From positions 69,610-133,609 of the forward strand of contig CAYVCQ010000010.1 in NCBI GenBank assembly GCA_964450405.1: a DNA stretch of 64,000 nucleotides, in the 5' to 3' direction. Below, one piece after another: positions 2,427-27,220 of the stretch. The stretch's first letter is position 1; every line of letters starts with the position of its first letter. The notes beneath the pieces are model-generated. The model was not told where the DNA came from. It saw only the letters and a program-made list of their open reading frames with translations, and made no database searches. The position numbers were made by a program, and so were the translations under genes. This DNA comes from an uncultured Leptospirales bacterium. GTDB lineage: Bacteria; Spirochaetota; UBA4802; UBA5550.

Positions 2427-2720
2427 ATGTGTAATATGTTTGGATCAGCTTCCGCACAGGGACAATCAAGTTGGATGAGTTTTGTTCCGATTGTGCTTAT
2501 GATTGTTATTTTTTATTTCCTTCTGATCAGACCTCAGCAGAAAAAAGAAAAACAGCGTCTGGCAATGATTAATAATTTAAAAAACGGTGATAAAGTCATT
2601 ACTGCAAGCGGCATGTATGGTGTTGTAACCGGAATTAAAGATGACATTATAACAGTTAAAGTAGCATCTAACACTAATATCGAATTTGCAAAAAGTGCAA
2701 TCCAGGCAAAAATTTCCTGA
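2427..2720 (+). CDS. yajC: Preprotein translocase subunit YajC
   Basis: Single TM helix followed by the YajC consensus (IVLMIVIFYFLLIRPQQKKEKQ ... GDKVITASGMYGVVTGIKDD). It sits directly upstream of secD-secF. The true start may be an internal Met (2436 or later). Confidence 0.85.
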   Translation: MCNMFGSASAQGQSSWMSFVPIVLMIVIFYFLLIRPQQKKEKQRLAMINNLKNGDKVITASGMYGVVTGIKDDIITVKVASNTNIEFAKSAIQAKIS

Positions 2721-2743
2721 AGAACAGGTGTGAAGAATAAATT

Positions 2744-3364
2744 ATGAAATTGTTAAAAGTATTAACAATCGTTTTGTTTTCACTAACTCTCTGTTTTTCT
2801 GCTTTATCAGCGCAGGAAAACAGTACAGCAGATACTGTAGTGGATCAGAATACCGGTTCCGGTACCGTGATAGAAAAAACAGTTCCGGTTGAGAAAACTG
2901 AAACTGTTAAAGTCATACCGGAAACAACTAATACAAAAAAAACTTCGACTAATGAAAAGAAAAGTGAAAGCCGGAAAAACACAGTCAAAAAAAACGTAGA
3001 AAAAAAAGCTGCACCGGTAGCTGTTGAAGTTAAAGAAGAGAAAACTAATCAGGTGAAAATGGAAGGAGATCTTCTTCCTATAAATGAGGGTAATTTTAAA
3101 TATAAAAGAATCCCCGATATTAAACTGATAGATATAAAACCTGAAGCTGCTGAATCTAACACTCAGGTTGCAGAAGTGCCGAAATCCGCACCGAACACAT
3201 CGGGCGGGTTTTTAGGATTAAGTAAAACAGCTTCGGACGTAATTGTCAAGGGTGGAGCTCTTCTTCTTATACTCTTGATTTTTGTTTTATACAAATCAAG
3301 AATGTCCCGTCCGGGCAGTAAGATTTCAAAAAAAAGAAATGTTTTGAATAGTTACAGGAAATAA
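2744..3364 (+). CDS. Hypothetical secreted, Lys/Thr/Glu-rich low-complexity protein with a C-terminal TM anchor
   Basis: N-terminal signal peptide, a long K/E/T/V-rich low-complexity region, and a C-terminal hydrophobic helix (GGALLLILLIFVLY) with a basic tail. No recognisable catalytic motif. Confidence 0.45.
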   Translation: MKLLKVLTIVLFSLTLCFSALSAQENSTADTVVDQNTGSGTVIEKTVPVEKTETVKVIPETTNTKKTSTNEKKSESRKNTVKKNVEKKAAPVAVEVKEEKTNQVKMEGDLLPINEGNFKYKRIPDIKLIDIKPEAAESNTQVAEVPKSAPNTSGGFLGLSKTASDVIVKGGALLLILLIFVLYKSRMSRPGSKISKKRNVLNSYRK

Positions 3365-3383
3365 TATTTCATAGAGGATTTAA

Positions 3384-5039
3384 ATGACTAAAGGAATGGT
3401 ATATAAGAGTATTTTTATATTACTGCTGATTACGTTAGCTGTACTCCTTATTCTTCCAACTGTGGGAACAAAGAAGATGGAGATCAGGCTGAATAACTCA
3501 GCAACACTGCAGGATATTGAAATTGTTAAAAAACGTTTTGAATCCAGTAGTTATAAAATTGAAATGAATGATAAAATAATTACAGTTTCAGGGACAAATA
3601 TAACTGATGCTATAATGAATGAAATGAAAATTTATCCTGGCGTTGCGGATGTGAAACTTCTGAAACATTGGGTAGAGTCTGCATTTCTTGCAAAAAAAAT
3701 TAACCTGGGTCTGGATCTGCAGGGTGGTATGTATCTTGTTCTTCAAGCTGATTTTGATAGTATCAAGGCAAAACTCGGGAGAGAACTTACTGAAAAAGAT
3801 AAAAATGAGATTACTCAGCAGGCTCTTGAACTTTTAAGGAACAGGATTGATAAATTCGGAGTTGCTGAGCCGTCTATAAGACCAAGAGGTAATGATGCGA
3901 TTGAAATACAGCTTCCCGGTGTAAAAGATCCGGCTGGTGTGAAAAAAGCATTTGGTGAAACCGGAAGTCTGGAATATAGACTGGTTGATGATAAATATAC
4001 AGCATCGGCATCAGCATGGTTTGCCCAGCATTACAAGGATAAACCTCTCCCCGAAACTTATGAAGAATTGCAGGTAATACTAACCGAAATTTCAAAAAGT
4101 ATAGTACTTCCTGAAAATCTTGAAACTTTATTCTTCTATAATCGTAATAAAAATACAGGATTAGTAGTACCAGAGTATCCTATCGTTCTGAATAAGACCA
4201 TTGCATTAAACGGAACAGATATCCAGGAAGCAACTGTTGACAAAGACGAATATGGCCAGGTAGTTGTTTCTTTTAAAACAACTGCTGATGGAGCTGTAAA
4301 ATTTGCAGATGCTACTTCGGATAAAAATCATGGAAAGAAACTTGCCATTGTTCTTGATAATAAAGTCAGAAATGCTCCGAACATTAAAGAGACAATCGGA
4401 TCAGGAAGCGGTAATATAAGCGGCGGATTTTCTTATGAAGAAGCTCAAACTCTATCGAGGATTATTAAAGAAGGAGCTCTTCCTGTAAGATTGAAAATAG
4501 TAGAAGAGAGAACTGTCGGGCCATCTCTCGGACAGGATTCTATCGAATCAGGTGCAAAGGCATTTATGATCGGTATAATAGGAATCATGCTCTTCTGTAT
4601 TGCTTATTACAAAATGGGAGGAGTATTTGCAGTTTTCGGCTTAATATTGAATATGATTTTCATAGTTGCTGTTCTTTCTCTACTTGGTTTTACGCTGACA
4701 GTTCCAGGTATAGCAGGTTTTCTTCTTTCAATAGCGATGGCAACAGATGCGAATGTAATTATATATGAAAGAATAAAAGAGGAGCTGCGGAAAGGAAAAT
4801 CAATAAGAATTGCCATTGAAAATGGTTTTGACCGTGCTTTCTGGACTGTTTTCGATTCAAATCTCACTGTTCTGCTTGCCGCATTTATAATGTTTCAGTA
4901 TGGCACAGGACCGGTTAAAGGGTTTGCAGTAATGCTTTTTATTGGAAACATCGTAAGTATGTTTGTATCGCTTTATCTTACACGATTTGTTTACGAACTG
5001 TTGTCTCTCAATAAAAAAATGAAGAAATTGAGTATATAA
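3384..5039 (+). CDS. secD: Protein translocase subunit SecD
   Basis: 551 aa. N-terminal TM helix, a large periplasmic domain, and a C-terminal 6-TM SecD/SecF core (LGLDLQGGMYLVLQ, conserved C-terminal TM bundle). It is followed by secF. Confidence 0.9.
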   Translation: MTKGMVYKSIFILLLITLAVLLILPTVGTKKMEIRLNNSATLQDIEIVKKRFESSSYKIEMNDKIITVSGTNITDAIMNEMKIYPGVADVKLLKHWVESAFLAKKINLGLDLQGGMYLVLQADFDSIKAKLGRELTEKDKNEITQQALELLRNRIDKFGVAEPSIRPRGNDAIEIQLPGVKDPAGVKKAFGETGSLEYRLVDDKYTASASAWFAQHYKDKPLPETYEELQVILTEISKSIVLPENLETLFFYNRNKNTGLVVPEYPIVLNKTIALNGTDIQEATVDKDEYGQVVVSFKTTADGAVKFADATSDKNHGKKLAIVLDNKVRNAPNIKETIGSGSGNISGGFSYEEAQTLSRIIKEGALPVRLKIVEERTVGPSLGQDSIESGAKAFMIGIIGIMLFCIAYYKMGGVFAVFGLILNMIFIVAVLSLLGFTLTVPGIAGFLLSIAMATDANVIIYERIKEELRKGKSIRIAIENGFDRAFWTVFDSNLTVLLAAFIMFQYGTGPVKGFAVMLFIGNIVSMFVSLYLTRFVYELLSLNKKMKKLSI

Positions 5040-5049
5040 GGAGAGAATT

Positions 5050-5958
5050 TTGAAAAAGACTATCAATTTTCTTAAGTATCAATATATAGCTATCGGAGCT
5101 TCCTGGCTTTTTATTATAGGACTGACAGCAGGTACTATTCTCAGCGGCGGTTTTAATTATGGAATAGACTTTGTCGGTGGTTATAAAATAATTGCAAAGT
5201 TTCAGGACAGCTCAGTGTCTGAGCATGTAATCAGAAAAGTGTTAGATGATTTTAATCCTACAGTACAAAAAATAGGTGAGGAATCAAAAAACCAGTATAT
5301 TATAACAACAAAGCTGGAAGATACTGCCGTAGCCTCGGTGAAAGGTTCTGCAGATCAGACTTCAGTTTCAAAATATGAAATAATGAAAAAGACTTTAAAT
5401 GAAAAATTTCCCGGTATTTCAATTATGAGTGAAGAAACTGTAGGTCCATCAATCGGAGATTATCTCAGAAAGTCAGCATGGAAACTGACTCTCATGGCCG
5501 TTATTATGATGTCGATTTATCTTTCTTTCAGATTTGAGGTAAAGTATGCCTTTGGTGGAATGGTCTGTTTATTTCATGACATGGCTATGACAGTTGCTTT
5601 TTGCGGTATCATGGGTATTGAAATAAACATAACAGTACTTGCAGCGTTACTAACCTTGTATGGTTACTCGATAAACGACACTATAGTTATTTTTGACAGG
5701 ATAAGGGAGACCGATAAACTTCGCGCAAAAACAACTTTTAAAGATGTGATAAATAAAGCCATTACAGAAACCCTCTCAAGAACACTTATTACAGGTGTTA
5801 CAACACTGTTTTCTGTACTTGTTCTCTATCTTATCGGAGGAGAGGCTTTGCATGATTTTGCTTTTGTGCTTCTATTTGGTATAATTTTAGGAACTTATTC
5901 ATCGATATATATTGCGTCTCCCGCAGTACTCTGGTGGGAAAAGTGGAGAGCTAAATAG
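5050..5958 (+). CDS. secF: Protein translocase subunit SecF
   Basis: 302 aa with the SecF pattern (GIDFVGG, 6 TM core, DTIVIFDRIRE). Apparent TTG start 11 nt after the secD stop. A ribosome-binding site (AAGGAGAGA) lies upstream. Confidence 0.88.
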   Translation: MKKTINFLKYQYIAIGASWLFIIGLTAGTILSGGFNYGIDFVGGYKIIAKFQDSSVSEHVIRKVLDDFNPTVQKIGEESKNQYIITTKLEDTAVASVKGSADQTSVSKYEIMKKTLNEKFPGISIMSEETVGPSIGDYLRKSAWKLTLMAVIMMSIYLSFRFEVKYAFGGMVCLFHDMAMTVAFCGIMGIEINITVLAALLTLYGYSINDTIVIFDRIRETDKLRAKTTFKDVINKAITETLSRTLITGVTTLFSVLVLYLIGGEALHDFAFVLLFGIILGTYSSIYIASPAVLWWEKWRAK

Positions 5959-6011
5959 TAAAATAAATTTCCGGTTTATTTTAATCAAAAACCGGATAAC
6001 AGATTAGTTAA

Positions 6012-6884
6012 TTGAAAAATTTAAAAGTATTTTTTTTTATAATCTTTGTAATCCTGAATACAATGGTGTCTGCTAAAGAAGAGACGCCATTGTATGACGA
6101 TTTTACACCGGATAAAATTTCAACCTTCGCATGTTCACTTATTGAAAAAGGTGAGTATTACAGGGCTTATGTAGAACTTCTCCGTCTTAATTCATATTAC
6201 CCGTCATCTCTTAGTGTTTCAGTTTTTGATATTACCTCCAATTATCTATTTTATAAAAGTAAAAGATTTGATGATCTGCTGGAATTTGATTCTTCCGGAA
6301 TTGCTGATAATATTTTTATACCTGTCTCACTGTTTAGAATAGACAGTCTCTTTAAATTAAATAGAAGAGATGAAGCTGAATCTGAATTGGATGTACTAAA
6401 CAAACGAGCGGACTCAGAAAGTTATCACGAATATTTAAAGAAAAGATCTGCATACATTAAAATTCTAAAAAATGAAAAAAATGAATTTTCAGGTTATGAT
6501 GAACTTTTTGAATATTCTGAAAATATTTACGGAAGTAAAAAGAATCCATATCTCGGAGCATTGGCAGGAGTAATTCCAGGAATGGGATTTATCTATGCCG
6601 GGGAGACTGGTACCGGTATTGTTGCACTGATTTTAATCAGTGCCGGTTCAGCGATCACATATTCATCATACAGAGATGGCTGGGATTCTTTGGCAATAAT
6701 TTCAGGGACAATAACATTTTTTTTCTATGGCGGGAGTATTCTTGGAGGATACATGCAGACAACAAGATACAACGATAGTCTCATGAAAACTCTGGAAATG
6801 AAACTTAATAGAGAGTTAATGCCTGAAAAAGATCTTGAAGAGATTTATATTAAATTCGGGTTAAATTCAAATGATTGTAAATGA
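6012..6884 (+). CDS. Hypothetical membrane protein (signal peptide, helical periplasmic part, C-terminal Gly-rich TM pair)
   Basis: Apparent TTG start. Signal peptide, and a C-terminal hydrophobic region (GALAGVIPGMGFIYAGETGTGIVALILISAGS). Its 3' end overlaps the ribD start by 14 nt. Confidence 0.4.
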   Translation: MKNLKVFFFIIFVILNTMVSAKEETPLYDDFTPDKISTFACSLIEKGEYYRAYVELLRLNSYYPSSLSVSVFDITSNYLFYKSKRFDDLLEFDSSGIADNIFIPVSLFRIDSLFKLNRRDEAESELDVLNKRADSESYHEYLKKRSAYIKILKNEKNEFSGYDELFEYSENIYGSKKNPYLGALAGVIPGMGFIYAGETGTGIVALILISAGSAITYSSYRDGWDSLAIISGTITFFFYGGSILGGYMQTTRYNDSLMKTLEMKLNRELMPEKDLEEIYIKFGLNSNDCK

Positions 6885-8097
6885 TCTATACATGAAACGG
6901 GCGTGTGAAATCGCTTTTTCGAGAATAGGAAAAACTTCTCCTAATCCTGCTGTTGGTGCAGTCATCGTAAAGGGCGGAGTTATAATCGGAGAGGGGGGCA
7001 CTGGTATATATGGAAGTGACCATGCTGAGGTAACTGCAATAAAGGATGCCCGAAACAGGGGAAATGATACTAATGGTGCGGAGATCTATGTGTCGCTTGA
7101 GCCGTGCAGTCATTTTGGCAAAACTCCTCCATGTACTGATGCGATTATTAATTGTGGAATAAGCAAGGTATATATACCGATTCTTGATCCAAATCCTGTT
7201 GTCTCAGGGAGTGGTGTAAGGAAGCTTATAGAGGCAGGAATAGAAGTTAAGATAATGCACAATTATTTTCATGAAGCTTCTGACCTGATTAGAAGTTTTA
7301 AAAAATATATACTGCGAGGTCTGCCATTTGTTATTAACAAATGCGCAGTTACTTTAGATGGCAGAATAGCTGCAAATTCAGGTGATTCTAAATGGATTTC
7401 GAATGAATATACCAGGTTATTTGTTCATAAGCTAAGATCAAAGGTTGATGCAGTCATTGTCGGGAGCAATACACTGATTAAGGATAATCCGATGCTCAAT
7501 GTCCGGATTAACGATTTCGGAAACGATATAAGAACCGTTTTAAAAGAGAGCAGCAGCCGGATCAGCGGCAGAGATAATTTTTTTCTTGCAGAATTATTAA
7601 AAACAGAGATAACTGATTACAAAGATCCTTTAAGAGTTCTCGTAGGATTGCCGCAGGAAATTTCAGGTGGATGCAGTTTTTTGCGTGATGATAATTATAT
7701 AATCATTTCAAGTGAAGAAGAGTTTAACACAGCACTGCGGGTAAATAAGGATTTTAACAGTTTATCTGATAAATTGAATATTGTTAAAGGACATTTCACC
7801 TCGCACGAAGAGAGTATACATTTCGCATTGGATATTCTTAAAGGGAAAGGGGTAATGACAGCTCTTCTCGAAGGCGGAGGTACCTTGAATGGTTCATTTT
7901 TAGATGCAGGTGCTATAGATCAGTTTATGTATGTTATTGCTCCAAAAGTGCTGGGAAGCGGTCTTTCTCCAATCAGAGGGAGAGAAAGTGAAAAGATGTC
8001 AGATTCACTTGATCTTAGAGATGTATCAACGGTTATGATTGGAGACAACCTGCTGTTTAACGGCTACAAAGAAGAATATAATTTCGAGATGATGTGA
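6871..8097 (+). CDS. ribD: Bifunctional riboflavin biosynthesis protein RibD (pyrimidine deaminase / reductase)
   Basis: Cytidine/dCMP deaminase zinc motif (HAEVTAI ... SLEPCSHFGKTPPC). RibD C-terminal reductase motif (VTLDGRIAANSGDSKWIS). It is followed by the riboflavin synthase gene. Confidence 0.85.
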   Translation: MIVNDLYMKRACEIAFSRIGKTSPNPAVGAVIVKGGVIIGEGGTGIYGSDHAEVTAIKDARNRGNDTNGAEIYVSLEPCSHFGKTPPCTDAIINCGISKVYIPILDPNPVVSGSGVRKLIEAGIEVKIMHNYFHEASDLIRSFKKYILRGLPFVINKCAVTLDGRIAANSGDSKWISNEYTRLFVHKLRSKVDAVIVGSNTLIKDNPMLNVRINDFGNDIRTVLKESSSRISGRDNFFLAELLKTEITDYKDPLRVLVGLPQEISGGCSFLRDDNYIIISSEEEFNTALRVNKDFNSLSDKLNIVKGHFTSHEESIHFALDILKGKGVMTALLEGGGTLNGSFLDAGAIDQFMYVIAPKVLGSGLSPIRGRESEKMSDSLDLRDVSTVMIGDNLLFNGYKEEYNFEMM

Positions 8098-12716: not shown

Positions 12717-14066
12717 ATGAGAATCATAACATATCTTTCATCATTAGCAGTTATATTAATTTTTGGGGTAACAAGTTCTTTTGCAGCTGTTGATCAGACT
12801 TTTGTTGAAAGGATATTAAAGGAAAACAGGGAGTTTGTAGATTTTATAGATCTCAGTGTTACAAATTTCGCTCCTGCAAAGAAAAACGAACTATTTACTA
12901 TATACCAGAAACATTTTAATGCTGAAGTTGCTTTCCTTCAGGGTGATTACAAAAGAGCTTTTGACAACGTTTATGATTCACAAAAAGATATGGTGGCAAT
13001 GTATGAGTTAATACTTACTGAATACTACCTTGAGGACTCCAAAAATATACTAGATGGTTTTGCTGCTGATATAATCAGATCAAAAAATACCGCTGCTAAA
13101 CAATACCTTACACTGGGGTACCGGGACAGGACTCTCAGCAGGACATTTTATATTTCAGGAGAAGCCTCTCACCCCAGACTCTATTCTTATAAAATATTTA
13201 AATATCTCGAAGCTATAAACATGGCCAGAAGAGCAAAAAGGTATGCTTTTATTGCTTTATATACCGGCCAGAATGCAAAAGGGAAATTGAGAATTTACAA
13301 TCAGATGTTTAAAAGTGAGAACGAGAAGGGCGGTCTTTTCTTTAAAAGATTTGTAGATAAAAATGAAAAAGACTATATTATCGAGATGAACAAAACGTAT
13401 GAAGAGTCAGAAAAGGAGTTAGCACAGAAGACCCCCGCCGGGATTACTGATGTTAAGCCTGTTGAAGGAGATAAGAAAACTGAAACTCCCGATGCAGCAA
13501 ACAACGCAGCTTTTGAAAAAAAAATGGAAAGAAGTGTCAGATTCAGAAAAGAACAGAGAGTTGCTCAATACATTATGAATGAGGAATTTGATAAAGCTGA
13601 GACTATAATCAGATCGTATGTCGAAGATTATAATTTCAAGCTTATAACGGCTACGTTTTTAGCACTTGATTCAGGAGAAACTCACACAGAGGGTGAAGCT
13701 GCTGCAACGGCTAAAAAGGATTATAAAAAGTTTGTTCAGCATCATAATGATAATTATAAAATCTTTAATACTAAATCTGTACTTGATAGTGTTACAGGAG
13801 ATGTAAAGGTTATCGATTCAGTAAAAAAGGATGACAAAAAAGTTGAAGATATACAAAAAATCGAAGGCAGCAGCAGTAAAATCCCAGATGCTGAAGCGAA
13901 TAAGAAACTTGAAGAAGCTGCAAAAGATAATAAAGACATAAAAGATAATAAAGATATAAAAGATAATAAAGATATAAAAGATAATAAAGATATAAAAGAT
14001 AATAAAGATATAAAAGATATAAAAGATATAAAAGATATAAAAGATAATAAAGATTTAAATAAATGA
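12717..14066 (+). CDS. Hypothetical secreted protein with a C-terminal (D/N)KDIK tandem repeat tail
   Basis: Signal peptide, and a charged helical body. The C-terminus is encoded by 18-bp and 9-bp DNA tandem repeats giving KDNKDIK x6 followed by DIK x3. Confidence 0.5.
   Translation: MRIITYLSSLAVILIFGVTSSFAAVDQTFVERILKENREFVDFIDLSVTNFAPAKKNELFTIYQKHFNAEVAFLQGDYKRAFDNVYDSQKDMVAMYELILTEYYLEDSKNILDGFAADIIRSKNTAAKQYLTLGYRDRTLSRTFYISGEASHPRLYSYKIFKYLEAINMARRAKRYAFIALYTGQNAKGKLRIYNQMFKSENEKGGLFFKRFVDKNEKDYIIEMNKTYEESEKELAQKTPAGITDVKPVEGDKKTETPDAANNAAFEKKMERSVRFRKEQRVAQYIMNEEFDKAETIIRSYVEDYNFKLITATFLALDSGETHTEGEAAATAKKDYKKFVQHHNDNYKIFNTKSVLDSVTGDVKVIDSVKKDDKKVEDIQKIEGSSSKIPDAEANKKLEEAAKDNKDIKDNKDIKDNKDIKDNKDIKDNKDIKDIKDIKDIKDNKDLNK
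13922..14050 (+). repeat. Tandem repeat inside a CDS: about 5 units of 18 bp (GATAATAAAGATATAAAA) followed by 9-bp GATATAAAA units
   Basis: Seen directly in the sequence. It encodes the DNKDIK/DIK peptide repeat and is a candidate slipped-strand length-variable tract. Confidence 0.8.
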
Positions 14067-14673: not shown

Positions 14674-15252
14674 TTAGTTTTTTCCTTTTACATTATACTC
14701 CCATAGTTCTACAAGCTTATCAAATTCTCTATCAGATGGTTTATTCTCATACGCCTCATTTCTTCTTTTTATAAGATAGTAGACCGTTGAATCTTCCAGA
14801 AGGAATTTTTCACCAAGCTCATTCAGTTTATTAATAATGTAAATGAGATTGTAGGTGTTAAAACTCCCGAGTATTTCAGTGGATGCAACTGTCGGTTCAT
14901 ATTTCAGTAGAAGTTCAGTGAAGTAAAGAGCACTCCTCCATGAATCATTTATTCCGGCAAGACCCGACTTAAAGTGCATACTCAGTTTTTCAAACAGCTC
15001 CATATTTTTATAATAAGAGTCATATATGAATTTGATATATTGAGGAAAATTATTTTGAACTTCCATAAGATCGATCGGTTCATTTATAGTTGTGAACAGC
15101 TCAAAAATTTCGCGGCTTTTCTCATTGTTCGGTTCAACATCGATCAATTCAATTTTTAAGTCTTTTATTATAGTACGGACAATACCTGCTTTTTTCAGGT
15201 AGATTTCAATTTCAACAGGCTCAACATAATATTTTTTTTTGCTAATACTCAT
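14674..15252 (-). CDS. Hypothetical protein (192 aa), last gene of the antiporter operon
   Basis: No recognisable motif. Soluble. A 3-nt gap separates it from the upstream 805-aa gene, which suggests co-transcription. Confidence 0.4.
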   Translation of the reverse strand: MSISKKKYYVEPVEIEIYLKKAGIVRTIIKDLKIELIDVEPNNEKSREIFELFTTINEPIDLMEVQNNFPQYIKFIYDSYYKNMELFEKLSMHFKSGLAGINDSWRSALYFTELLLKYEPTVASTEILGSFNTYNLIYIINKLNELGEKFLLEDSTVYYLIKRRNEAYENKPSDREFDKLVELWEYNVKGKN

Positions 15253-15255
15253 TTT

Positions 15256-17673
15256 TTATTCTTTGATTCTTTTTTTATAAATATTTAAAATCTCTATCTG
15301 CTGTTTAATGTACGAAAATTTTTCGGCCTCGGCAATCAATGCACTGATTTTATTCTTGTCGGCAGAATCTGTTTTGTCAATTTGATCAATTATTGTGTAA
15401 AAATCAGCATTCATCTTCTCAAGCTTTGCGCGACAAAGATCCCAGAGAGTATCTCCTTTCTGTACAACGACCTTTTCTCCATCAAGCATGATGAATATAT
15501 TGGATGGAAAAATCCAGTGAGGATTTTTATCTTTTAATCCTTTATAAGAAATTTTCTGGTATCCATTTTTTACTGCAACATCATTTGAGTAGTTATATAT
15601 ATCCAGTTCGCTGATTTTTACTTTATGTTTTAAAAGAAGTTCTTTCTCCTGTTCATTAACTCTTTTTACCGTAACAACAATGTTTTTGTTTTCAGAGGTC
15701 TGCAAAGAAGAATCCTTAGCTAAGTTTGCCGTTTCATGTTTTTTTATTTTAACAATATAATATCCGGAAGCCAGGAGAAGAAGAAAAAGCAGCAGGAGTG
15801 CAGAGGGAATAATTATTCTCTTCTTTAAAGATTTATTTGATACATCTGCATCAATAATATTATTTTTATTGCTATTACTATTGCTGTTGCTCTTATTCTT
15901 CTTCTGTTTTTTTGATTCAGAACTGCTGATAGAATAGAATTCACTGGTGTAAACGTCTTTTCTGTTGGATATTTCATTTTTAAGAAGAGACATCTCTTTT
16001 TCTATTTTGCTGAAAGATGGTAAATGTGTTATTCCGCTATAAAACAAACTGAGAAGTTTATTTAATCTTTCCCTGTCTTCAATTATTCTTTTTCCTAGAA
16101 TTCGCTGTTCAGGGTTTAGTGTAATTTCTTCAACATTGGATTGGTTGTACTCGTCAATGAATCTCTCTTCCGTTGGAGATGGTACCTGTTTGAATATTGT
16201 GCAGCAGAAATTATTATGCAATGCGAGTATGATTTTTATTGAAGATTTCATTCCGGTTGTTGGAGTGAAAATTATTGTTGAATGAAAATTCTGATAAATA
16301 TCTTTCAGTGCGGAATATTTTTTTCTATCAGTGATATTTCCCATGTAAGCTTTTAACAGACCGGGAAGATTAAGGAGCTCCAGAGATTGCTGGTTGTTAG
16401 CGATAAGTGAGCTGATTAAACCGTCCAGTTTTTCGCGGTCAAAATCTTCAATGGCAGATTTAATTTCATCCAGTCCGGTGAATTCCTTCATTAGTTCTTC
16501 AAAAGATTTATATTTTTTCAAATCATATTGAATTCCGGATTTGAGAATAATTTTATCGGAGTCGCTGATTTTTTTAATATTGCGGTTTCCATCATCGATT
16601 ACTAATACAGGAACTTCGGTAGATTTAAAAAGAAGTGCAGATTCCTCATAAGCTGTATATGTAATCAGTACAGCATCTGATTTTTCTTTCAAAATCCTGG
16701 CTGTATCTGCGGGAGATTTGATGAACGGAATAATAATTTCATCATCTTTCTCATCTGATTGTCTGAATGAAAGTTTGATATTAGGAGAGTTTATATATGA
16801 ATTGATTTTTAAACCTTCACCAGTATTCATATGCAGGTTTGAAAACTTTTCATCACTAACCGTGGCCTTTTTAAATAACTTTTTGATTAATCCTATCTGT
16901 TCGAAATTGTCTGAATATAATTTAATTTTTCCACCGCGCTGATTTTTGAATTTCATAAAACCGGAAATATTAATCAGATTTTGTGAAGGGAGAAGCAGTT
17001 CACGGATATAACTTGGATCAATCTGCAGTGTTGAAAAATCAAGAAGACATTTGTCAGGGAACTGATAAGATGTAAAACATCCTTTCTGATAAAAAATCGG
17101 GTTGTTGTCTATGACTACAAGACCGGCTCCTTTATATCTATCGGTGTTTTTTGAGTTTGCAGATATTCTGTTTAGTATCTCTGCGTTGTTAAGATTGTCG
17201 CGATCTATTATATTAAGATCAAAGATATTGTTTCCGCCATGATTGATTTTTATATTGCCATCACTGTAAAAAATTCCAATAAACTGATCCCTGTTTGAAA
17301 CATTTTTCTGGCTCGATAACTCGGGAATATCCTTCTCGATATTTACTAGCGAGACATTTGTAAGATCCAGACCGAATATTCTCTGATACTCAAGAAATCT
17401 TTTTAGAATGGATTCACCACCGATGTAACGGTTAGCTTCAAGATTACGCACATCAATGTTAAACTGTTCGTAGGATGGATTACCGAGAATTTTATCTGAA
17501 ACAATAATATTTTCAACAAGCGGTATTATCTCAACCGGGAGGTCATACCATGTACCGATTCTGATAAAAGGTCTTTCATCGTTGATTGATCCTCCGGTAA
17601 AAATAATAAAACATTCGGTATCTACTATGAATAATCTGTCAGAGTTGCTTTTAATAATGTCGCTGAGCTGCAT
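15256..17673 (-). CDS. Large hypothetical membrane protein (805 aa) with a ~600-aa cytoplasmic region, one TM helix, and an extracytoplasmic tail carrying a LysM-like motif
   Basis: One hydrophobic helix (IIIPSALLLLFLLLLASGYYIV) follows an SN-rich linker. The C-terminal VVVQKGDTLWDLCRAKL resembles the LysM core. No ATPase or nuclease motif found. Confidence 0.45.
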   Translation of the reverse strand: MQLSDIIKSNSDRLFIVDTECFIIFTGGSINDERPFIRIGTWYDLPVEIIPLVENIIVSDKILGNPSYEQFNIDVRNLEANRYIGGESILKRFLEYQRIFGLDLTNVSLVNIEKDIPELSSQKNVSNRDQFIGIFYSDGNIKINHGGNNIFDLNIIDRDNLNNAEILNRISANSKNTDRYKGAGLVVIDNNPIFYQKGCFTSYQFPDKCLLDFSTLQIDPSYIRELLLPSQNLINISGFMKFKNQRGGKIKLYSDNFEQIGLIKKLFKKATVSDEKFSNLHMNTGEGLKINSYINSPNIKLSFRQSDEKDDEIIIPFIKSPADTARILKEKSDAVLITYTAYEESALLFKSTEVPVLVIDDGNRNIKKISDSDKIILKSGIQYDLKKYKSFEELMKEFTGLDEIKSAIEDFDREKLDGLISSLIANNQQSLELLNLPGLLKAYMGNITDRKKYSALKDIYQNFHSTIIFTPTTGMKSSIKIILALHNNFCCTIFKQVPSPTEERFIDEYNQSNVEEITLNPEQRILGKRIIEDRERLNKLLSLFYSGITHLPSFSKIEKEMSLLKNEISNRKDVYTSEFYSISSSESKKQKKNKSNSNSNSNKNNIIDADVSNKSLKKRIIIPSALLLLFLLLLASGYYIVKIKKHETANLAKDSSLQTSENKNIVVTVKRVNEQEKELLLKHKVKISELDIYNYSNDVAVKNGYQKISYKGLKDKNPHWIFPSNIFIMLDGEKVVVQKGDTLWDLCRAKLEKMNADFYTIIDQIDKTDSADKNKISALIAEAEKFSYIKQQIEILNIYKKRIKE

Positions 17674-17680
17674 AATGTCC

Positions 17681-19381
17681 TCACTTTAGTTTTGAATAAG
17701 CCGGTTTAATTGAAGCTATAAATTCATTGAATGACTTAGTTTTAAAAATTCTTTCCCGTGTTTCCCTGTCTTGAAAGACTGAAGATATATCCGCCAGTAT
17801 CTGGATTTGAGATTGATGGTCCTGGAGCGGTGTTAGAATCATGAATATCATTTTAGCCGGTTTGCCGTCAATTGAGTTAAAGTCAACTCCAGCCTCGGAT
17901 TTTGCAACAACAATAATTGGTTTTGTCAATCCCGCTAATTTTGCGTTGGGTATTGCAATGCCCAGTCCGATACCTGTGCTCATCAGCTTTTCACGTTCGA
18001 TTGCAAGAAGTGCGGCGTTTTCGAAGTCGATAGAAGTTTTATCTTTTAACGTTTTAGACATGGTTTTAATTGCACTGAACTGGTCTTCAGATTTAAGATG
18101 GCCGATGTAGAATCTGCTGTCAAAAAGTTCCAGAAGGTTCAGTTTTTCCACTGGTTTAAGAAAGTATTTGATCAATGGTCCGCTTGTCATGGAGGTTATC
18201 ACAGCAGTTAGTATAATAGCCTCAAATACCTGACCATTAATCAGTCCGTAACGGAGTGCAACAACGCCAAGTATAATACCCATGGCTCCGCTTGAACTCA
18301 TTGCAGCACCAATTGCCATCGACTCTCTGAGATTATATCCCGCAACTCTACCTGAAATTACGGTACTGCTGAATTTTCCTGCAAAAATTATGGCAAGAAA
18401 AATAATGACAAGAAGCGGATTGAAATTAGAGATGAAGTCAGTACGTAGTCCGATTGATACGAAAAAGAGCGGTGCAAAGATATTGTCTATGAATTGAGTT
18501 ATGATGTTTCTTGTCTGCTCTCTTAAATGTGGAGAGTCGCCTATTGCTATTCCGGCAAGAAATGCTCCGAGTATTGCATGGGTTCCTGCGGACTCCGCCA
18601 CGGCGGATAGAATCAGCCCTATTACTATGGTGAATGTAATCACACCGCCGGGCCATTCAGTTTTGGCCTGAATCCATGGTAATGTTAAATTGATAAGATA
18701 TCTCATTACTGTAAGAGTTAGCGCCGCTATTATAATTGTAAGAGTAATAGACTTGATCAGACCATAAAAATTAACAGATCCTGTCTGAAGAAGCTGTATG
18801 TTTACAGAAAAGATAAGCCATCCAATGAGATCTTTAACGACAGCCGAGGCCATAATAAGCATTCCAAACTCGGTATGAAAAAGCTTTAGATTGAGAAGTA
18901 TTTTTGCAATAAGAGGGAGCGCGGTAATTGAAAGAGATATTCCGATAAAAATAACTAAAGAGAAACTCCCTTTTTCCACACTGAATAATTGCGGGAATAG
19001 TAGAACCACGCATGCTCCAATAGCAAATGGAAATATTAAACTCAATGAACTTACTATAGCTACAGATTTCCCCTGTTTAATAACGGAGGAGAGTTCCACC
19101 TCGAGTCCCGCAGTAAGAAGTAGAAATACAACTCCTATAAGAATAAAAGCTTCAAGAGCAAAATATATTCTGGAATCTCCCGTTGGGAAGAAAGAGGCGT
19201 AAACACCGGGTGATATGCGGCCAAGAATTGTAGGTCCTAAAATAATCCCAGCAAGAATTTCTCCGATAACGGCAGGGAGCTTCATCCGTACGAATAATTC
19301 GCCGATTAATTTCGCAAGCCCCAGCATAAGTGCAAGGGAGAGAAATAATATAATTATATCGCTTTTATCAAATACGCTCAT
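17681..19381 (-). CDS. CPA2-family cation/proton antiporter (KefB/NhaP-like) fused to a C-terminal PTS EIIA type-2 (EIIA-Ntr-like) domain
   Basis: Twelve or more TM helices with a Na_H_exchanger-type core (GEILAGIILGP). The C-terminal ~150 aa match PTS_EIIA_2 (LAIEREKLMSTGIGLGIAIPNAKL ... AGVDFNSIDGKPAKMIFMILTP). Confidence 0.75.
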   Translation of the reverse strand: MSVFDKSDIIILFLSLALMLGLAKLIGELFVRMKLPAVIGEILAGIILGPTILGRISPGVYASFFPTGDSRIYFALEAFILIGVVFLLLTAGLEVELSSVIKQGKSVAIVSSLSLIFPFAIGACVVLLFPQLFSVEKGSFSLVIFIGISLSITALPLIAKILLNLKLFHTEFGMLIMASAVVKDLIGWLIFSVNIQLLQTGSVNFYGLIKSITLTIIIAALTLTVMRYLINLTLPWIQAKTEWPGGVITFTIVIGLILSAVAESAGTHAILGAFLAGIAIGDSPHLREQTRNIITQFIDNIFAPLFFVSIGLRTDFISNFNPLLVIIFLAIIFAGKFSSTVISGRVAGYNLRESMAIGAAMSSSGAMGIILGVVALRYGLINGQVFEAIILTAVITSMTSGPLIKYFLKPVEKLNLLELFDSRFYIGHLKSEDQFSAIKTMSKTLKDKTSIDFENAALLAIEREKLMSTGIGLGIAIPNAKLAGLTKPIIVVAKSEAGVDFNSIDGKPAKMIFMILTPLQDHQSQIQILADISSVFQDRETRERIFKTKSFNEFIASIKPAYSKLK

Positions 19382-19833
19382 ATATGCTTTCTTTTCTGAA
19401 ATTTCAAAAAGTTTGTAATCCTATGATATTTAATCTCAGTAGCTGCTCATAAACGGGTGGGAAAAATTGCTTCCCCGCGGCTATGGCGCGGGGAGGCATT
19501 ATTTGCCTTCAGTTTATGATTAGTTACTAATCTGCCTAGTTTATATAAATTAAATAATGTTGCAATAAAAATTTATATAGATGAAGATCCTTTTGCAGCC
19601 TGTTCGGGCTTTTGGTGTAACTGATTAATTTGTAATAATTCTTAAAATGCTGGTAAGATTGCTCTCTGACGCACCATGCACGACTCAGCTAAATCCACAA
19701 CTTATCCCAACTGATGAGCTCCCACCGCTTTTCATTGATAAACTTTCAAGGAGCATTTTTGGCCGTGGTTAATAAAAATAAATATGCTTCCTGTTGCCGC
19801 AGAAGGAGACCCAAATTCACATATAGAAAAAAG

Positions 19834-19868: not shown

Positions 19869-20144
19869 ATGAAATACAATTTCGATAAATCTAAAAACGA
19901 ATTATTGATAAAAGAACGCGGTATATCATTTTATCAGGTCATAGAAACAATTGCCGAAAAGGGAATTTTATTAAATATTGAACATCCGAATAAAGTAAAA
20001 TTTCCGAATCAGTACATGCTTGTTATTGAATATGATAATTATACTTATTGTATCCCGTATGTTAAAAATAAAGATACAATATTTTTAAAAACAATTTTTC
20101 CAAATCGCGATTTTATGTATTTGTTAAAGGAGACTAAAAAATGA
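19869..20144 (+). CDS. BrnT-like (DUF497) type II toxin
   Basis: 91 aa. The N-terminal FDKSKNELLIKERGISFYQV fits the BrnT consensus (W/F-D-x-x-K-N-x-x-N-x-x-K-H-G-I-S-F). It overlaps the downstream gene by 4 nt (ATGA). Confidence 0.55.
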   Translation: MKYNFDKSKNELLIKERGISFYQVIETIAEKGILLNIEHPNKVKFPNQYMLVIEYDNYTYCIPYVKNKDTIFLKTIFPNRDFMYLLKETKK

Positions 20145-20431
20145 AAACTACAAAATATCTTGATAAAGAAGAACAGGAATTAATCGAATCATTTTCAAAT
20201 GTTGACAAAAAGGATTTAAAGCATCCGACAAAAAAGGATCAGCAGGTCTTTAAAAAAGCCGCCAGACAATATATTGCGAAAGAAACGAAGATGAATATTC
20301 GAATCGATCCATATGAATTGAAAATTATTAAAAAATTCGCAGATGAAGCTGGTTTGAAATACCAGACATTCATCAAAAGCATAGTTCATAAATACATCAC
20401 AGGTCAGCTTATTGAAAAGAGAACAAAATAA
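20141..20431 (+). CDS. BrnA-like (COG3514, RHH/CopG-type) antitoxin
   Basis: 96 aa. The C-terminal MNIRIDPYELKIIKKFADEAGLKYQTFIKSIVHKYI matches the BrnA ribbon-helix-helix pattern. It is translationally coupled to the toxin. Confidence 0.55.
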   Translation: MKTTKYLDKEEQELIESFSNVDKKDLKHPTKKDQQVFKKAARQYIAKETKMNIRIDPYELKIIKKFADEAGLKYQTFIKSIVHKYITGQLIEKRTK

Positions 20432-20726: not shown

Positions 20727-23102
20727 ATGAATAGAATATCTGGATATATATTAAACCTCTATTTCCGTTTTCCCGGGATAAGAATGTTTTTCATGATGAT
20801 GATTATTTTTATAATCTTCAGCATTATCAGTGTTGTGGTAATGATATCTGATGAAGTGAAAACAGATCCTGTGGGCTGGGATAAGATGAAAATACTCTCA
20901 CCCGCAGGTGTTACCGCAAGGAATGTTCATGCAGACCGCAAAGGTAATCTTGTAGCTGCAGTATTTGAAGGTGCTTCGAAGGGTAATACCGGAATATATG
21001 TAACTCTATCATTTGATGGAGGGACAAGTTTTATTGATTCTATAAAAATAGCTGATTTTAAATCTGAAATAAGCAACAGTCCCCGGATTGCAATTTCCAG
21101 TAAGGGTGAGATTTACGCCACCTGGTATGTTCTTTCAGGGGATGAATCAAACAGCAGTATATACTATTCGATGTCCGGTGATATGGGTGTCACATGGAGT
21201 GCGCCGGCTGTAATAACATTCGGCATGCAGATGGAGATACTCCCGGAACCGGCATTTGATGATCAGAACAGATTCCATCTGTTTTTTATATCATACAGCG
21301 GGAACAGTTTTAATCTTTTTCACACCAGAATGGATGAAAAAAAAGTATTCGATAAACCTGAACCTGTGGTAAAAATTAAAGGAAGTATCAAAGGAGCATT
21401 TTTTCCCGCAGTAAAATTTATTAAAAATTATATCATTGTGGTGTGCCAGGGGAAGGAGGAGAGCTACTCGGATCATCTGTTCTTTACAATTTCTGATAAT
21501 TACGGCGGCAGCTGGAGCGGAGTTGAAAAACTAACTTCAGGGAAGTTTAATAATCAGGCCCCGTCAATCGAAGTATATGATGATATAATTTATCTTGTTT
21601 ACATGAGCAACAGTGACAAGAACTGGAGCATCAACATGCTTCGAGGGTACAGACTTGGAGAAAGATGGGACCCGGCACCTTTAAAAATTTCCACAACAAA
21701 TGCAAACTGCTACTCTCCGGATATTGCAAGTTCACCGGATAACGAACTGTTTATCACGTGGCATGATCTCCGCGAAAAAGGGAGCAGGATTTTTTATAGA
21801 AAATACTCCGTCAAAACAAAGGAACTTCTTCCTGAAAGCAAACTCTCGGTAAAACAGACTGCCGGAAGAAATCCTCTCTGTGTAAGTACTGCAAAAAAAC
21901 TTGTGGTGTTATGGGAGGAGGGTGGAAGGATTGCAGCAAACTATAGTGATACATATGTTGCTGCACCTGCAGTTTTTTCTTCAACTCACAGGGAGGACAA
22001 GTGGAGCAGGGAAAATTCAGCAGTAATAAACTGGAAAAAACCCTTTGATGAATCGGGAATTGCCGGCTACGCAGCAATTACAGATAAGAATCCATATACA
22101 AATCCGACAATACAGAACCAGCGGAGTGATTCATCCAGCATTCTTGTCACAGGTCTTGATGATGGAATAACATATTTTCATATAAGAGCGATTGACGGCG
22201 CTGGAAATATGAGCCGCACAGTTCACTACAGACTTCAGGTAAGTTCTAATCCGCTTGCAATGCCGATTGTAATATCTACAACACATCCGGAGAACGGAAA
22301 TTCTCCGGCAACTGATGCTGTTTTCAGATGGGCTGTAAATGATTCCAGAAGATTAAAAGGATTTGTATACAGCATATCAAAAGATACCGCTCTCAAGCCG
22401 GAAAAGTTTATTAAAGACTTTGAGATTAAATTCAGCGAGCTTGAGAATGGGGTGTATTATTTCAATATAGCAGCAGTGAGTACAACAGATCAATTCAGCA
22501 GGATTTCAACATATAGTTTTGTTGTTGGTGAAGGTTCAATTAATACAGATTATTTAAAGAATCTGGCAAATAAAGATTACGATAAGGGTGAGAAGAGAAA
22601 AATTATTTATCTCCCCGCCCTGGAAGTGAATCTTCCTTTTGGAGATACAGGTAAATATAATATCGGGAGTTTCACTGCGCTGCTGAAACCGCTTAATATT
22701 GCACTTGAGAATGTCAGCGGGTATTCTGTGGTTATAGGAAACGAAAAAAAAGTTCCAGCCGATAAAATAAATCTGATGTCCGGTGTTTTGAACATTGCAG
22801 GGCTGAGTAAGGGAAATTATACCCTTGGTATTAAATGCCGGTATTTTAAAATTGTTAACGGAAGAAAAAAGTACTTCTGGACCGAGCCGGTCTACAGGAG
22901 TTTTACAATTGCTCCCGATCCGGTAATCACACCCTTTGATAGAATTTATGCCAGATTGATGAAAAAATTCAATTCATCCCCGATTGTTTTTTCAATGATT
23001 ATATTTCTATTTTCAGCTACAGTTGTCTACAGAGGATATGGAAATAGAATCAGTTTTTATCTGAAAATGGTTAACTACAAAGTTAAGTATTATTTCGGTT
23101 AA
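20727..23102 (+). CDS. Membrane-anchored BNR/Asp-box repeat protein (sialidase-like beta-propeller) with Ig/Fn3-like distal domains and a C-terminal TM helix
   Basis: N-terminal TM helix. Several Asp-box motifs (SFDGGTSF, SGDMGVTWS, SDNYGGSWS). A beta-rich C-terminal half. The terminal hydrophobic segment is SPIVFSMIIFLFSATVV. Confidence 0.6.
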   Translation: MNRISGYILNLYFRFPGIRMFFMMMIIFIIFSIISVVVMISDEVKTDPVGWDKMKILSPAGVTARNVHADRKGNLVAAVFEGASKGNTGIYVTLSFDGGTSFIDSIKIADFKSEISNSPRIAISSKGEIYATWYVLSGDESNSSIYYSMSGDMGVTWSAPAVITFGMQMEILPEPAFDDQNRFHLFFISYSGNSFNLFHTRMDEKKVFDKPEPVVKIKGSIKGAFFPAVKFIKNYIIVVCQGKEESYSDHLFFTISDNYGGSWSGVEKLTSGKFNNQAPSIEVYDDIIYLVYMSNSDKNWSINMLRGYRLGERWDPAPLKISTTNANCYSPDIASSPDNELFITWHDLREKGSRIFYRKYSVKTKELLPESKLSVKQTAGRNPLCVSTAKKLVVLWEEGGRIAANYSDTYVAAPAVFSSTHREDKWSRENSAVINWKKPFDESGIAGYAAITDKNPYTNPTIQNQRSDSSSILVTGLDDGITYFHIRAIDGAGNMSRTVHYRLQVSSNPLAMPIVISTTHPENGNSPATDAVFRWAVNDSRRLKGFVYSISKDTALKPEKFIKDFEIKFSELENGVYYFNIAAVSTTDQFSRISTYSFVVGEGSINTDYLKNLANKDYDKGEKRKIIYLPALEVNLPFGDTGKYNIGSFTALLKPLNIALENVSGYSVVIGNEKKVPADKINLMSGVLNIAGLSKGNYTLGIKCRYFKIVNGRKKYFWTEPVYRSFTIAPDPVITPFDRIYARLMKKFNSSPIVFSMIIFLFSATVVYRGYGNRISFYLKMVNYKVKYYFG

Positions 23103-27190: not shown

Positions 27191-27220
27191 TCTCCGCCGC
27201 GCCTTAGGCGCGGCGGAGAG
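27191..27220. terminator. Perfect GC-rich hairpin (TCTCCGCCGCGCC-TTAG-GGCGCGGCGGAGA) between convergent genes
   Basis: 13-bp perfect stem seen 30 nt after the sensor gene's stop. It is a member of the CGCGCC...GGCGCG hairpin family. Confidence 0.55.

Follow-up and report, generated by a model that had tools for sequence, protein, structure and literature searches.

A conserved gene pair in an uncultured spirochaete clade encodes a possible envelope anchor and its cytoplasmic partner

The window analysed here, a stretch of 64,000 nucleotides from an uncultured Leptospirales bacterium, contains three consecutive open reading frames on the reverse strand. These encode an antiporter-EIIA fusion of 566 aa (17681-19381), a predicted bitopic inner-membrane protein of 805 aa, referred to below as the anchor (15256-17673), and a predicted cytoplasmic partner of 192 aa (14674-15252). 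The fusion gene is the first of the operon and an optional one. According to the ORF layout of the window, a gap of 7 nt separates the 566-aa and 805-aa reading frames, and a gap of 3 nt the 805-aa and 192-aa frames; the same-strand arrangement given in a preliminary description of this DNA thus stands. Each of the three has hundreds of homologues and the region is syntenic in many genomes, which means that they are real genes. In the window, they are probably co-transcribed.

The 805-aa and 192-aa proteins had been called uncharacterised, and neither could be assigned to a family in Pfam, NCBIfam, PADLOC or PHROGs. For the 805-aa protein, the only match in these collections is a weak one to the LysM-type YneA model of NCBIfam (residues 733-777, E 0.0019). 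Hydropathy and the translation place a single transmembrane helix at residues 621-644 (15742-15813, reverse strand), and the AF2 model has a helix at residues 622-645. No hydrophobic segment precedes residues ~621-644, and no signal peptide was found. Since this is the lone hydrophobic segment of the protein, approximately 620 residues are expected to lie in the cytoplasm and approximately 160 in the periplasm. One transmembrane helix, a large cytoplasmic region and a LysM-like periplasmic end had already been proposed, and that part of the topology is retained. The Ser/Asn-rich stretch, however, had been taken for a linker between the helix and the LysM-like end; it lies at residues ~594-604, N-terminal to the helix and on its cytoplasmic side, and is no such linker.

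Inside the cell, the 805-aa protein begins with a domain of MBL-like fold (approximately residues 1-300; 16774-17673, reverse strand) and also has a helical region. The predicted domain has the alpha-beta/beta-alpha sandwich that defines the MBL fold, and residues 1-150 are the best-conserved segment of the whole protein. Its identity to members of the MBL superfamily (RNase Z/ELAC, Apyc1, PhnP, RNase J and CPSF73/CPSF100) is 8-12%. In contrast to these proteins, the 805-aa protein lacks the His ligands of the HxHxDH motif as well as the downstream His, and its MBL-like domain is fused to a transmembrane helix and a LysM-like tail. To our knowledge, an MBL protein built in this way has not been described.

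It could be argued that the 805-aa protein works as an MBL-superfamily hydrolase at the membrane (e.g., a nuclease or phosphodiesterase), with a non-canonical catalytic site, and that the 192-aa protein regulates or inhibits it or serves as its substrate adaptor. The N-terminal domain is, after all, the best-conserved part of the protein, and its first 130 residues are unusually dense in invariant acidic, polar and Cys residues (the invariant polar positions of the domain are D12, R13, D18, C21, D32, R38, E54, N55, D60, E69, Q70, N72, N81, R82 and Y83). Such a cluster could be a non-canonical active site instead of an interface. However, no His is invariant, or nearly so, among 27 diverse members of the family. 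The positions equivalent to HxHxDH, assigned from the sequence and the predicted secondary-structure register without superposition, read I56-x-V58-x-D60-K61, and the protein has neither this motif nor the downstream His/Asp ligands of an MBL hydrolase. There is also no detectable sequence similarity to any MBL family: a Lactamase_B match is absent at E <= 0.1 in Pfam and NCBIfam, and no PDB sequence match was obtained. Hydrolase activity is thus unlikely. Because the metal-binding histidines have been lost, the N-terminal domain is most likely a scaffold or binding module.

On the other side of the membrane, invariant alignment columns mark a conserved, presumably periplasmic LysM-like region (residues 676-750; 15424-15648, reverse strand) with the motifs NGY, NPxWIxPxNxF and GDTLW. 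Partial matches to LysM, YneA, LytE and TsaP fall here, all of them below threshold. The Pfam LysM model (PF01476) gives no match to the window protein at E <= 0.1, and in its relatives the match covers only positions 1-16 of 43, with scores of 16-19.5 bits against a cut-off of 20.9. The LytE and TsaP LysM matches to the 805-aa protein have an E value of 0.16 each, and PDB sequence-profile searches with the 805-aa and 192-aa families returned only marginal LysM fragments. The tail thus lies under every curated threshold, and it also looks atypical in the structural model. One relative of the 805-aa protein carries the name of a LysM protein at NCBI. The tail is LysM-like but divergent, and it would be positioned for peptidoglycan binding in the periplasm.

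The 192-aa protein is extremely conserved. It is predicted to fold into a beta-hairpin and an eight-helix bundle, for which there is no known fold relative. Gene neighbourhoods were sampled across an uncultured Spirochaetota clade, here termed the core clade, with 80 genomes as species representatives. The 805-aa and 192-aa genes are adjacent and co-oriented at all 80 loci, mostly with gaps of <130 nt, and the same adjacency is seen in MAG locus tags and in the contexts L001-L005. The two proteins are not conserved to the same degree: the 192-aa protein retains 65-93% identity where the anchor has 25-80%. The constant unit of the locus is the 805-aa/192-aa pair, and not the three-gene set.

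A deep profile search from the 805-aa family yielded 280 relatives, including a second tier of proteins with the same architecture. From these tier-2 matches, a sister family, the cfpA-linked anchor family, was defined in this analysis. The two families align over their full length (hhalign probability 100%, E 1.8e-67, 729 columns), and BLASTP of the 805-aa protein to one tier-2 member, P0425, matches the N-terminus with an E value of 1e-26 and the transmembrane helix plus tail with one of 3e-16. One transmembrane helix is present in 54 of the 55 tier-2 members, and the LysM-like motifs are common to both families, with the sister-family tail reading NGY...DPDWIYP...GDTxW. Directly downstream of the tier-2 anchor gene lies cfpA, at 30 of 33 assessable loci, and TP0747-like and then PPDK-like genes come next. 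The gene order after the sister anchor matches that of TDE0842-0844 in T. denticola (PMC3914990). CfpA is 67-86% identical, compared with 25-45% for its anchor, which is the same asymmetry as in the 192-aa/805-aa pair.

The treponemal cfpA locus (cfpA/TP0748, a TP0747-like gene and PPDK; TDE0842-0844) and the window are alike in that the gene for a fast-evolving bitopic anchor precedes that of a far better conserved cytoplasmic protein. They differ in the nature of this second protein, since the 192-aa protein is one third of the size of CfpA and has a different predicted fold. Neither cfpA nor a TP0747-like gene occurs within 10 kb at the window and at 86 core-clade loci; the 192-aa gene fills the downstream slot. 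It appears that the same anchor chassis is combined with a different, equally conserved partner. Remote homology of this partner to CfpA or TP0747 was considered and ruled out: there is no Pfam match to CfpA_C (PF27473) or TP_0747_N (PF27497), and the hhalign probabilities are 0.7% and 0.06%, respectively. The cytoskeletal analogy consequently draws on gene position and conservation pattern only. A further candidate, the cfpA neighbour TP0749 of T. pallidum, is not a member of the 805-aa family either, since it is an unrelated miniprotein of ~70 aa (PMC9200625).

Cytoplasmic filaments are located just beneath the cytoplasmic membrane (PMC13398306). Among the titles in the reference list of the same article is one on 'bridging and anchoring components' of the filaments, as seen by tomography; proteins are not named in that entry (PMC13398306). 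In the literature reached on the treponemal cfpA locus, no description of the sister-family anchor gene was found. The cfpA locus is the nearest functional lead for the pair, rather than ion homeostasis.

A different reading of the same evidence would be that the pair regulates cell division or peptidoglycan remodelling, as YneA or LysM amidase activators do, without any cytoskeletal assembly. This would be in line with the weak LysM-type matches to YneA, LytE and TsaP and with a neighbourhood rich in envelope genes, and CfpA itself has been associated with cell division (PMC3398590). Yet proteins of the YneA type are small and lack an extensive cytoplasmic domain, and a purely regulatory role would leave both the very high conservation of the partner and the 620-residue cytoplasmic part unexplained. 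We consider this reading improbable; it overlaps with that of an envelope anchor and does not exclude it.

The remaining gene of the operon encodes a protein of two well-defined domains. Residues 25-408 form a Na_H_Exchanger transmembrane domain (18158-19309, reverse strand; PF00999, E 1.3e-51, 176 bits against a cut-off of 26.2), and residues 427-559 at the C-terminus an EIIA type-2, PtsN-like domain (17705-18103, reverse strand; PTS_EIIA_2, PF00359, E 1.2e-24, 87.3 bits against a cut-off of 27). With both domains above the Pfam threshold, the antiporter-EIIA fusion noted in the preliminary description is confirmed. The best NCBIfam match of the protein is TIGR00932 (CPA2), with an E value of 8e-40 and a score of 137 bits that falls under the cut-off of 238; the match to the YbaL model is likewise under its cut-off, as is that of the EIIA domain to TIGR01419 (PtsN; E 8e-18). 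The exchanger domain may accordingly be called CPA2-like, its best model being sub-threshold. The two-domain architecture has >2600 homologues in several phyla and was seen in 116 of 116 full-length homologues among the matches listed. It is also found widely where the 805-aa/192-aa pair is absent, as in Deltaproteobacteria, and is a commonplace stand-alone arrangement that receives routine annotation.

A functional counterpart among the known systems compared is PtsN-YcgO of E. coli, in which an EIIA type-2 protein likewise partners an antiporter that exchanges monovalent cations for protons. The fusion resembles a covalent version of this trans interaction, and most fusion homologues keep the phospho-acceptor His. 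However, YcgO is a CPA1 protein with RCK and CorC domains that are bound by PtsN, whereas the window exchanger is CPA2-like and carries EIIA in their place. His73 of PtsN lies within the YcgO-PtsN interface, and the phospho-mimic H73E abolishes binding (bioRxiv 10.64898/2026.08.14.744764). In the window, a MAFFT alignment to PtsN, confirmed by the translation, places an Asn codon (Asn479; 17945-17947, reverse strand) at the position of this canonical phospho-acceptor, and the motif reads GIAIPN in place of GIAIPH (general form G-I-A-I/V-P-H). The equivalent residue is His in 106 of 117 fusion homologues and Asn in 11, and the latter comprise all 11 members of the subclade to which the window belongs. 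The exchange of the phospho-acceptor His for Asn makes PTS phosphorylation control at the canonical site impossible in this subclade, and the earlier suggestion that ion flux is controlled by the phosphorylation state does not hold for this copy.

That suggestion was part of a wider proposal, that of a three-gene module for ion homeostasis or envelope sensing. The wall would be sensed by the 805-aa and 192-aa proteins, and K+/Na+ efflux via the antiporter would be under their control, with EIIA in turn under the PTS-Ntr phosphorelay. Besides the tight spacing of the genes and the precedent of E. coli, where EIIA(Ntr) regulates the K+/H+ antiporter YcgO in trans (PMC11808508; bioRxiv 10.64898/2026.08.14.744764), the recurrence of the association speaks for the proposal. 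The antiporter gene is found upstream of the pair in 18 of the 72 species assessable for it, plus one further locus (L082). These loci are spread over all phylogenetic distances, with the antiporter always in the same slot, and across the 19 of them the divergence of the antiporter runs parallel to that of the pair (rho 0.92). At four antiporter-less loci, remnants of the 3' end of the gene persist, which shows that it was lost there, as opposed to never having been present. Given the shared slot, the co-divergence and the remnants, the antiporter appears ancestral to the locus. This ancestral presence, along with the tight spacing, leaves some room for a functional link to the pair.

On the other hand, the association recurs without being the rule. 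The pair stands without the antiporter in about 75% of species, three of the closest relatives (L006-L008) among them, and none of the 33 assessable sister-family loci carries it; that the pair might occur apart from the antiporter had been named in advance as evidence against the module, and this is mostly what was found. The fusion, in turn, is widely found apart from the pair, Asn takes the place of the phospho-acceptor His in the subclade, and no PTS relay genes are present among the 20 flanking ORFs scanned. The antiporter gene, although apparently ancestral in this clade, is dispensable for the pair and was deleted repeatedly. Of the module, a recurring and apparently ancestral association and a LysM-like end hold up; with an optional antiporter, Asn479 and the link to cfpA against it, the reading is weak and unlikely to be correct.

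Upstream of the operon, an AT-rich block (19527-19580, reverse strand) is kept in the window and at three related loci (L009-L011), and also at the antiporter-less L008; it is a candidate promoter or operator. A riboswitch or other leader RNA upstream of the antiporter found no support: over the whole window, Rfam gave nothing at the gathering threshold, the antiporter leader yielded only noise with the limit relaxed to E <= 5, and a GC-rich hairpin is located in an insertion that is missing from close relatives. Farther out, a 791-aa BNR/fn3 protein (20727-23102, forward strand) is recognised by weak BNR_2 and fn3 matches and has predicted transmembrane segments at both ends. Its gene lies divergently upstream in 58 of the 80 core loci and is absent from the sister-family loci; it is a conserved syntenic neighbour of the pair. 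Envelope genes are plentiful nearby (L,D-transpeptidase, BamA, Skp, OmpL37, PDZ and BNR). Although the pair is a two-gene cassette without assigned function and is adjoined by a BrnT/BrnA-like toxin-antitoxin pair (19869-20431), a mobile defence, phage-derived or toxin-antitoxin-like module is scarcely credible, as there is no PADLOC match and only noise in PHROGs, the chromosomal position is strictly conserved with the same flanks clade-wide and vertical co-divergence, and the neighbouring toxin-antitoxin genes form an insertion confined to the window.

The explanation that we tentatively prefer, while granting that it could well be wrong, is that of an envelope anchor by which a conserved structural partner in the cytoplasm is tethered to peptidoglycan. 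The 805-aa protein would be a bitopic anchor, with its cytoplasmic part of ~620 residues on one side of the transmembrane helix and the LysM-like tail reaching towards peptidoglycan on the other. Devoid of metal histidines, the MBL-fold domain would most likely serve as a scaffold or binding module, and the soluble 192-aa protein would most likely be held at the membrane by physical contact with the cytoplasmic part of the anchor. Together, the two proteins would fasten a structural assembly of the cytoplasm, perhaps of cytoskeletal nature, to the cell wall. In the sister spirochaete lineage, the same type of anchor would be combined with CfpA, the filament subunit, in the slot of the 192-aa protein. 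The antiporter-EIIA gene is an apparently ancestral operon member that was repeatedly deleted, and in the window its EIIA domain is locked in a non-phosphorylatable form.

An organisation of this general kind has parallels. FimV/HubP and TsaP are also bitopic or envelope proteins in which a LysM module is combined with a large organising domain, and TsaP is a weak sequence match to the 805-aa protein. FimV/HubP, however, is oriented the other way round: its LysM is N-terminal and periplasmic, and its C-terminus lies in the cytoplasm. None of these proteins shows homology to the 805-aa protein beyond the LysM-like motif, which in the latter is sub-threshold and atypical.

It is tempting to speculate further that the core clade has a sub-membrane cytoskeleton not seen before, in which the 192-aa protein serves as subunit or obligatory adaptor and functionally replaces CfpA. 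The pseudo-MBL/LysM family would then be the missing anchor of spirochaete filaments, those made of CfpA ribbons among them, and would connect them to peptidoglycan across the inner membrane, next to the periplasmic flagella. In this extended form, the idea is improbable.

For the antiporter, the analysis corrects an attractive inference on ion control: the fusion is commonplace, not canonically switchable here, and dispensable for the pair. The 805-aa family and its conserved 192-aa partner may instead represent an undescribed peptidoglycan-tethered pair. The cytoplasmic filaments of spirochaetes have long been known, while their mechanism has remained obscure. A concrete candidate for their anchor is now at hand: a bitopic protein that exposes a dead MBL-fold domain to the cytoplasm and a LysM-like domain to the periplasm, the gene of which abuts cfpA on its upstream side in nearly all assessable sister loci. 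The swap of partner in one whole clade would point to a novel element of the cytoskeleton or else to a modular anchor with exchangeable cargo.

The locus consists of three co-oriented ORFs on the minus strand: a 566-aa antiporter-EIIA fusion (17681-19381), an 805-aa protein, here termed the anchor (15256-17673), and a 192-aa partner (14674-15252). The first two are separated by 7 nt and the last two by 3 nt, exactly as the preliminary description of this stretch had it. That description also treated the three genes as one unit, which the gene neighbourhood does not support. One genome per GTDB species was scanned with the 192-aa family, giving 80 loci, annotated by tblastn, from 106 matching species. 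In all 80, the 192-aa gene is immediately preceded by an anchor homologue of the same orientation, whereas the antiporter-EIIA gene directly precedes the anchor gene at only 18 of 72 assessable loci (25%), and additionally at L082. The pair is not dependent on the antiporter. Uncultured Spirochaetota/Leptospirales MAGs are the source of every homologue of the two proteins. At two loci, L083 and L084 (8485-10001), the 192-aa gene lies ~1.5 kb beyond the point where the anchor is last detectable, a gap of less than 200 nt elsewhere; this could be an extended anchor C-terminus or an inserted gene.

Neither protein of the pair has a recognisable family, as was first thought: Pfam, NCBIfam, PADLOC and PHROGs gave no match, and the sole hint is a weak match to the LysM-type YneA near the anchor C-terminus. 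Hydropathy shows one hydrophobic segment in the anchor (about residues 621-644), with no earlier one, which makes some 620 residues cytoplasmic and some 160 periplasmic. This agrees with the one TM helix and ~600-aa cytoplasmic part originally proposed; the Ser/Asn-rich stretch, which had been listed after the helix as a linker, lies on its cytoplasmic side. Conservation peaks in residues 1 to ~150, where many Asp, Arg, Cys, Glu, Asn, Gln and Tyr are invariant, and rises again at periplasmic residues 676-750, with the motifs NGY, NPxWIxPxNxF and GDTLW. LysM models match the tail partially and below threshold; the name 'LysM-like' is justified, and the tail may, judging from its sequence, bind peptidoglycan.

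No invariant or nearly invariant His is found anywhere in the anchor family, and the HxHxDH positions, assigned by sequence and secondary-structure register and not by superposition, read I-x-V-x-D-K. Together, these features suggest a pseudo-MBL domain, which more probably serves as a scaffold than as a hydrolase. An MBL fold might also belong to an active, non-canonical hydrolase that works with a regulator; in a family in which no His is conserved, this is unlikely.

The 192-aa partner has no TM segment and no signal peptide. It is 65-93% identical across genomes where the anchor is just 25-80% identical. The most extreme case of this asymmetry is L064 (OY760686.1, 7734-10561), a complete 3.16-Mb chromosome in which the anchor is 25% identical to that of the window and the neighbouring partner 71%. 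The AF2 model is confident (pLDDT 89, pTM 0.85) and predicts a beta-hairpin followed by eight helices. Foldseek gave no match at E <= 1e-3 and a PDB profile search found nothing; as modelled, the protein appears to be without a specific structural relative.

A profile of anchor residues 1-400, searched against 1.84 billion representative proteins, retrieved 280 relatives, 96 of them at E <= 1e-30. About 70 representatives of the core family, which carries the pair, are followed by a second tier, with E-values running from 1e-38 to 1e-19. Second-tier proteins share the conserved N-terminal block, a lone TM helix (~residues 560-700) is present in 54 of 55, and most carry a tail of the form NGY...DPDWIYP...GDTIW. 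Profile-profile comparison of the two groups gave a probability of 100% (E 1.8e-67, 729 columns). By these measures the second tier consists of full-length homologues of the anchor with the same architecture.

The second tier has a different partner. At L087 and L088 of this sister family, cfpA (Pfam CfpA_C) comes next after the anchor gene, then a TP_0747_N gene and a PPDK-like gene. Over the whole set, enlarged by 53 loci from a metagenome scan, cfpA is directly downstream of the anchor gene at 30 of 33 assessable loci, and a 192-like gene or the antiporter at none of the 33. The one sister-family locus with a different order, L140 (2-7622), has the cfpA, TP0747-like and PPDK-like genes upstream of the anchor gene, not downstream. 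CfpA is 67-86% identical where its anchors are 25-45%, an asymmetry like that seen for the pair in the clade of the window. The order cfpA-hypothetical-PPDK is also that of Treponema denticola TDE0842-0844, which are co-regulated (PMC3914990). The cytoplasmic filaments (CfpA) run parallel to the periplasmic flagella, immediately beneath the cytoplasmic membrane, and the reference list of the same source cites tomography that revealed 'bridging and anchoring components' (PMC13398306). TP0749 is ruled out as the equivalent of the anchor, being a ~70-aa miniprotein (PMC9200625).

The treponemal cfpA locus is the closest known system to the 805/192 pair, which differs in lacking cfpA and TP0747 and in having an unrelated partner. 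Neither cfpA nor a TP0747-like gene occurs within 10 kb in the window and 86 core-clade loci, and the 192-aa family has no homology to CfpA or TP0747. The pair belongs to no curated family, and no description of the anchor gene was found in the literature searched. Given that CfpA is paired with the same chassis in sister lineages, the window pair is best read as a wall-anchored structural module of the cytoplasm, which may be a sub-membrane assembly of a different kind. A regulator of division or peptidoglycan remodelling, with no assembly involved, is improbable.

Where present, the antiporter-EIIA gene never changes slot or orientation, and 11-118 nt lie between it and the next gene. Antiporter identity to the window copy rises and falls with anchor identity (Spearman rho 0.92, n = 19), and the gene occurs in every distance band from the window (3/7, 4/16, 4/35 and 8/22). 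Among close relatives, it is present in L009-L011 and absent from L006-L008, both sets being equally close to the window. Four antiporter-less loci still encode its last 30-65 residues, in frame, in the spacer upstream of the anchor: L065 (7435-7596; E 3e-18), L075 (~5305-5440), L076 (~7512-7652) and L012 (~3813-3900). Co-divergence, presence in all distance bands and these 3' remnants indicate that the antiporter is ancestral at the locus and has been repeatedly deleted. In all four loci the deletion stopped short of the final few dozen codons; these may hold signals that expression of the anchor requires.

The fusion of an antiporter to an EIIA type-2 domain was correctly recognised from the outset: Pfam finds Na_H_Exchanger (residues 25-408, E 1.3e-51) and PTS_EIIA_2 (residues 427-559, E 1.2e-24), and the top NCBIfam match is a CPA2 subfamily model, under its cut-off. 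This architecture is already known and widely annotated, with over 2600 homologues; among them, proteins of Deltaproteobacteria and Desulfuromonadales that are full-length and ~42% identical are named simply 'cation:proton antiporter' or 'KefB/PTS IIA'. In L086, a deltaproteobacterial MAG, the fusion occurs without the pair, directly after a complete Tol-Pal cluster (1181-7689; ExbB/TolQ, ExbD/TolR, TolA-like, TolB, Pal, YbgF-like); as a single case, this adjacency may be coincidence.

In E. coli, PtsN in its unphosphorylated form binds the K+/H+ antiporter YcgO and inhibits it; the interface includes PtsN His73, and binding is lost with the phospho-mimic H73E (PMC11808508; bioRxiv 10.64898/2026.08.14.744764). 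The fusion is plausibly a covalent version of this type of regulation. In an alignment to PtsN, the residue at the His73 position is His in 106 of 117 fusion homologues. It is Asn, within an otherwise intact GIAIP(N)AKL motif, in all 11 members of the subclade to which the window protein belongs (at least 82% identity), that protein included. Because of this Asn, phosphorylation at the canonical site cannot switch the EIIA domain of this organism. The central mechanistic inference of the preliminary description, control of ion flux by PTS phosphorylation, therefore fails for this copy and may hold for the family at large. No PTS relay genes were found among the 20 flanking ORFs scanned. The sole notable point of the fusion here is the clade-specific loss of the phospho-acceptor His. 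With the pair so often standing alone, the ion-homeostasis module first proposed is quite doubtful.

The window as a whole is ordinary, syntenic chromosomal DNA. BamA, Skp, L,D-transpeptidase, SecDF, riboflavin genes and glutamine synthetase are followed by a LIC10486-like gene, an OmpL37-like gene, a small PDZ protein and the three-gene set, and then by a BrnT/BrnA-like TA pair and genes for a BNR/fn3 membrane protein, a TPR protein, partner switching and signalling. The neighbouring TA pair might bring to mind a mobile defence or TA cassette; this reading is contradicted by the synteny and is scarcely credible.

At its C-terminus, the 449-aa protein of the OmpL37 family has a series of near-perfect KDNKDI/KDIKDI hexapeptide repeats (13900-14066, plus strand), likely a site of length variation. 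The two TA-like ORFs (91 and 96 aa, overlapping, 19869-20431, plus strand) have weak BrnT/DUF4258 and CopG/NikA-like antitoxin matches. They separate the BNR gene from the antiporter in the window only, relatives having a 100-730-nt spacer there, and look like a toxin-antitoxin insertion. The BNR/fn3 gene (20727-23102, plus strand) is transcribed divergently from the operon; its ~790-aa product has hydrophobic segments at both ends and matches BNR (sialidase-like propeller) and fn3 weakly. With homologues at 58 of 80 core loci and none at cfpA-linked loci, it is a conserved neighbour of the operon.

Between a conserved promoter-like block and the antiporter gene, ~90 nt before the start codon, is a perfect GC-rich hairpin, CCCCGCG-N7-CGCGGGG (19472-19494, both strands), with a T-run after it on the minus strand. 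It is within a ~86-nt insertion that the close relatives L009-L011 lack, and has no Rfam match; it might attenuate operon transcription or may be a leftover terminator. Similar hairpins at gene ends (27195-27215 and 46594-46614), with 1-2 mismatches to this pattern, are probably ordinary intrinsic terminators of this genome; the pattern with 1-2 mismatches had no match in 100 shuffles.

In the most likely mechanism, the 805-aa protein would be a trans-membrane tether, with its LysM-like tail on peptidoglycan and a single helix joining this to a large cytoplasmic scaffold, the first domain of which has a dead MBL fold. Its conserved cytoplasmic cargo or partner would be the 192-aa protein; sister lineages pair the same anchor chassis with the filament protein CfpA. 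From the two genes being encoded together, we infer that their products bind each other, that the anchor binds peptidoglycan and that the role is structural. As a whole, a cell-wall-anchored cytoplasmic structural module is a tentative reading, its chances somewhat short of even.
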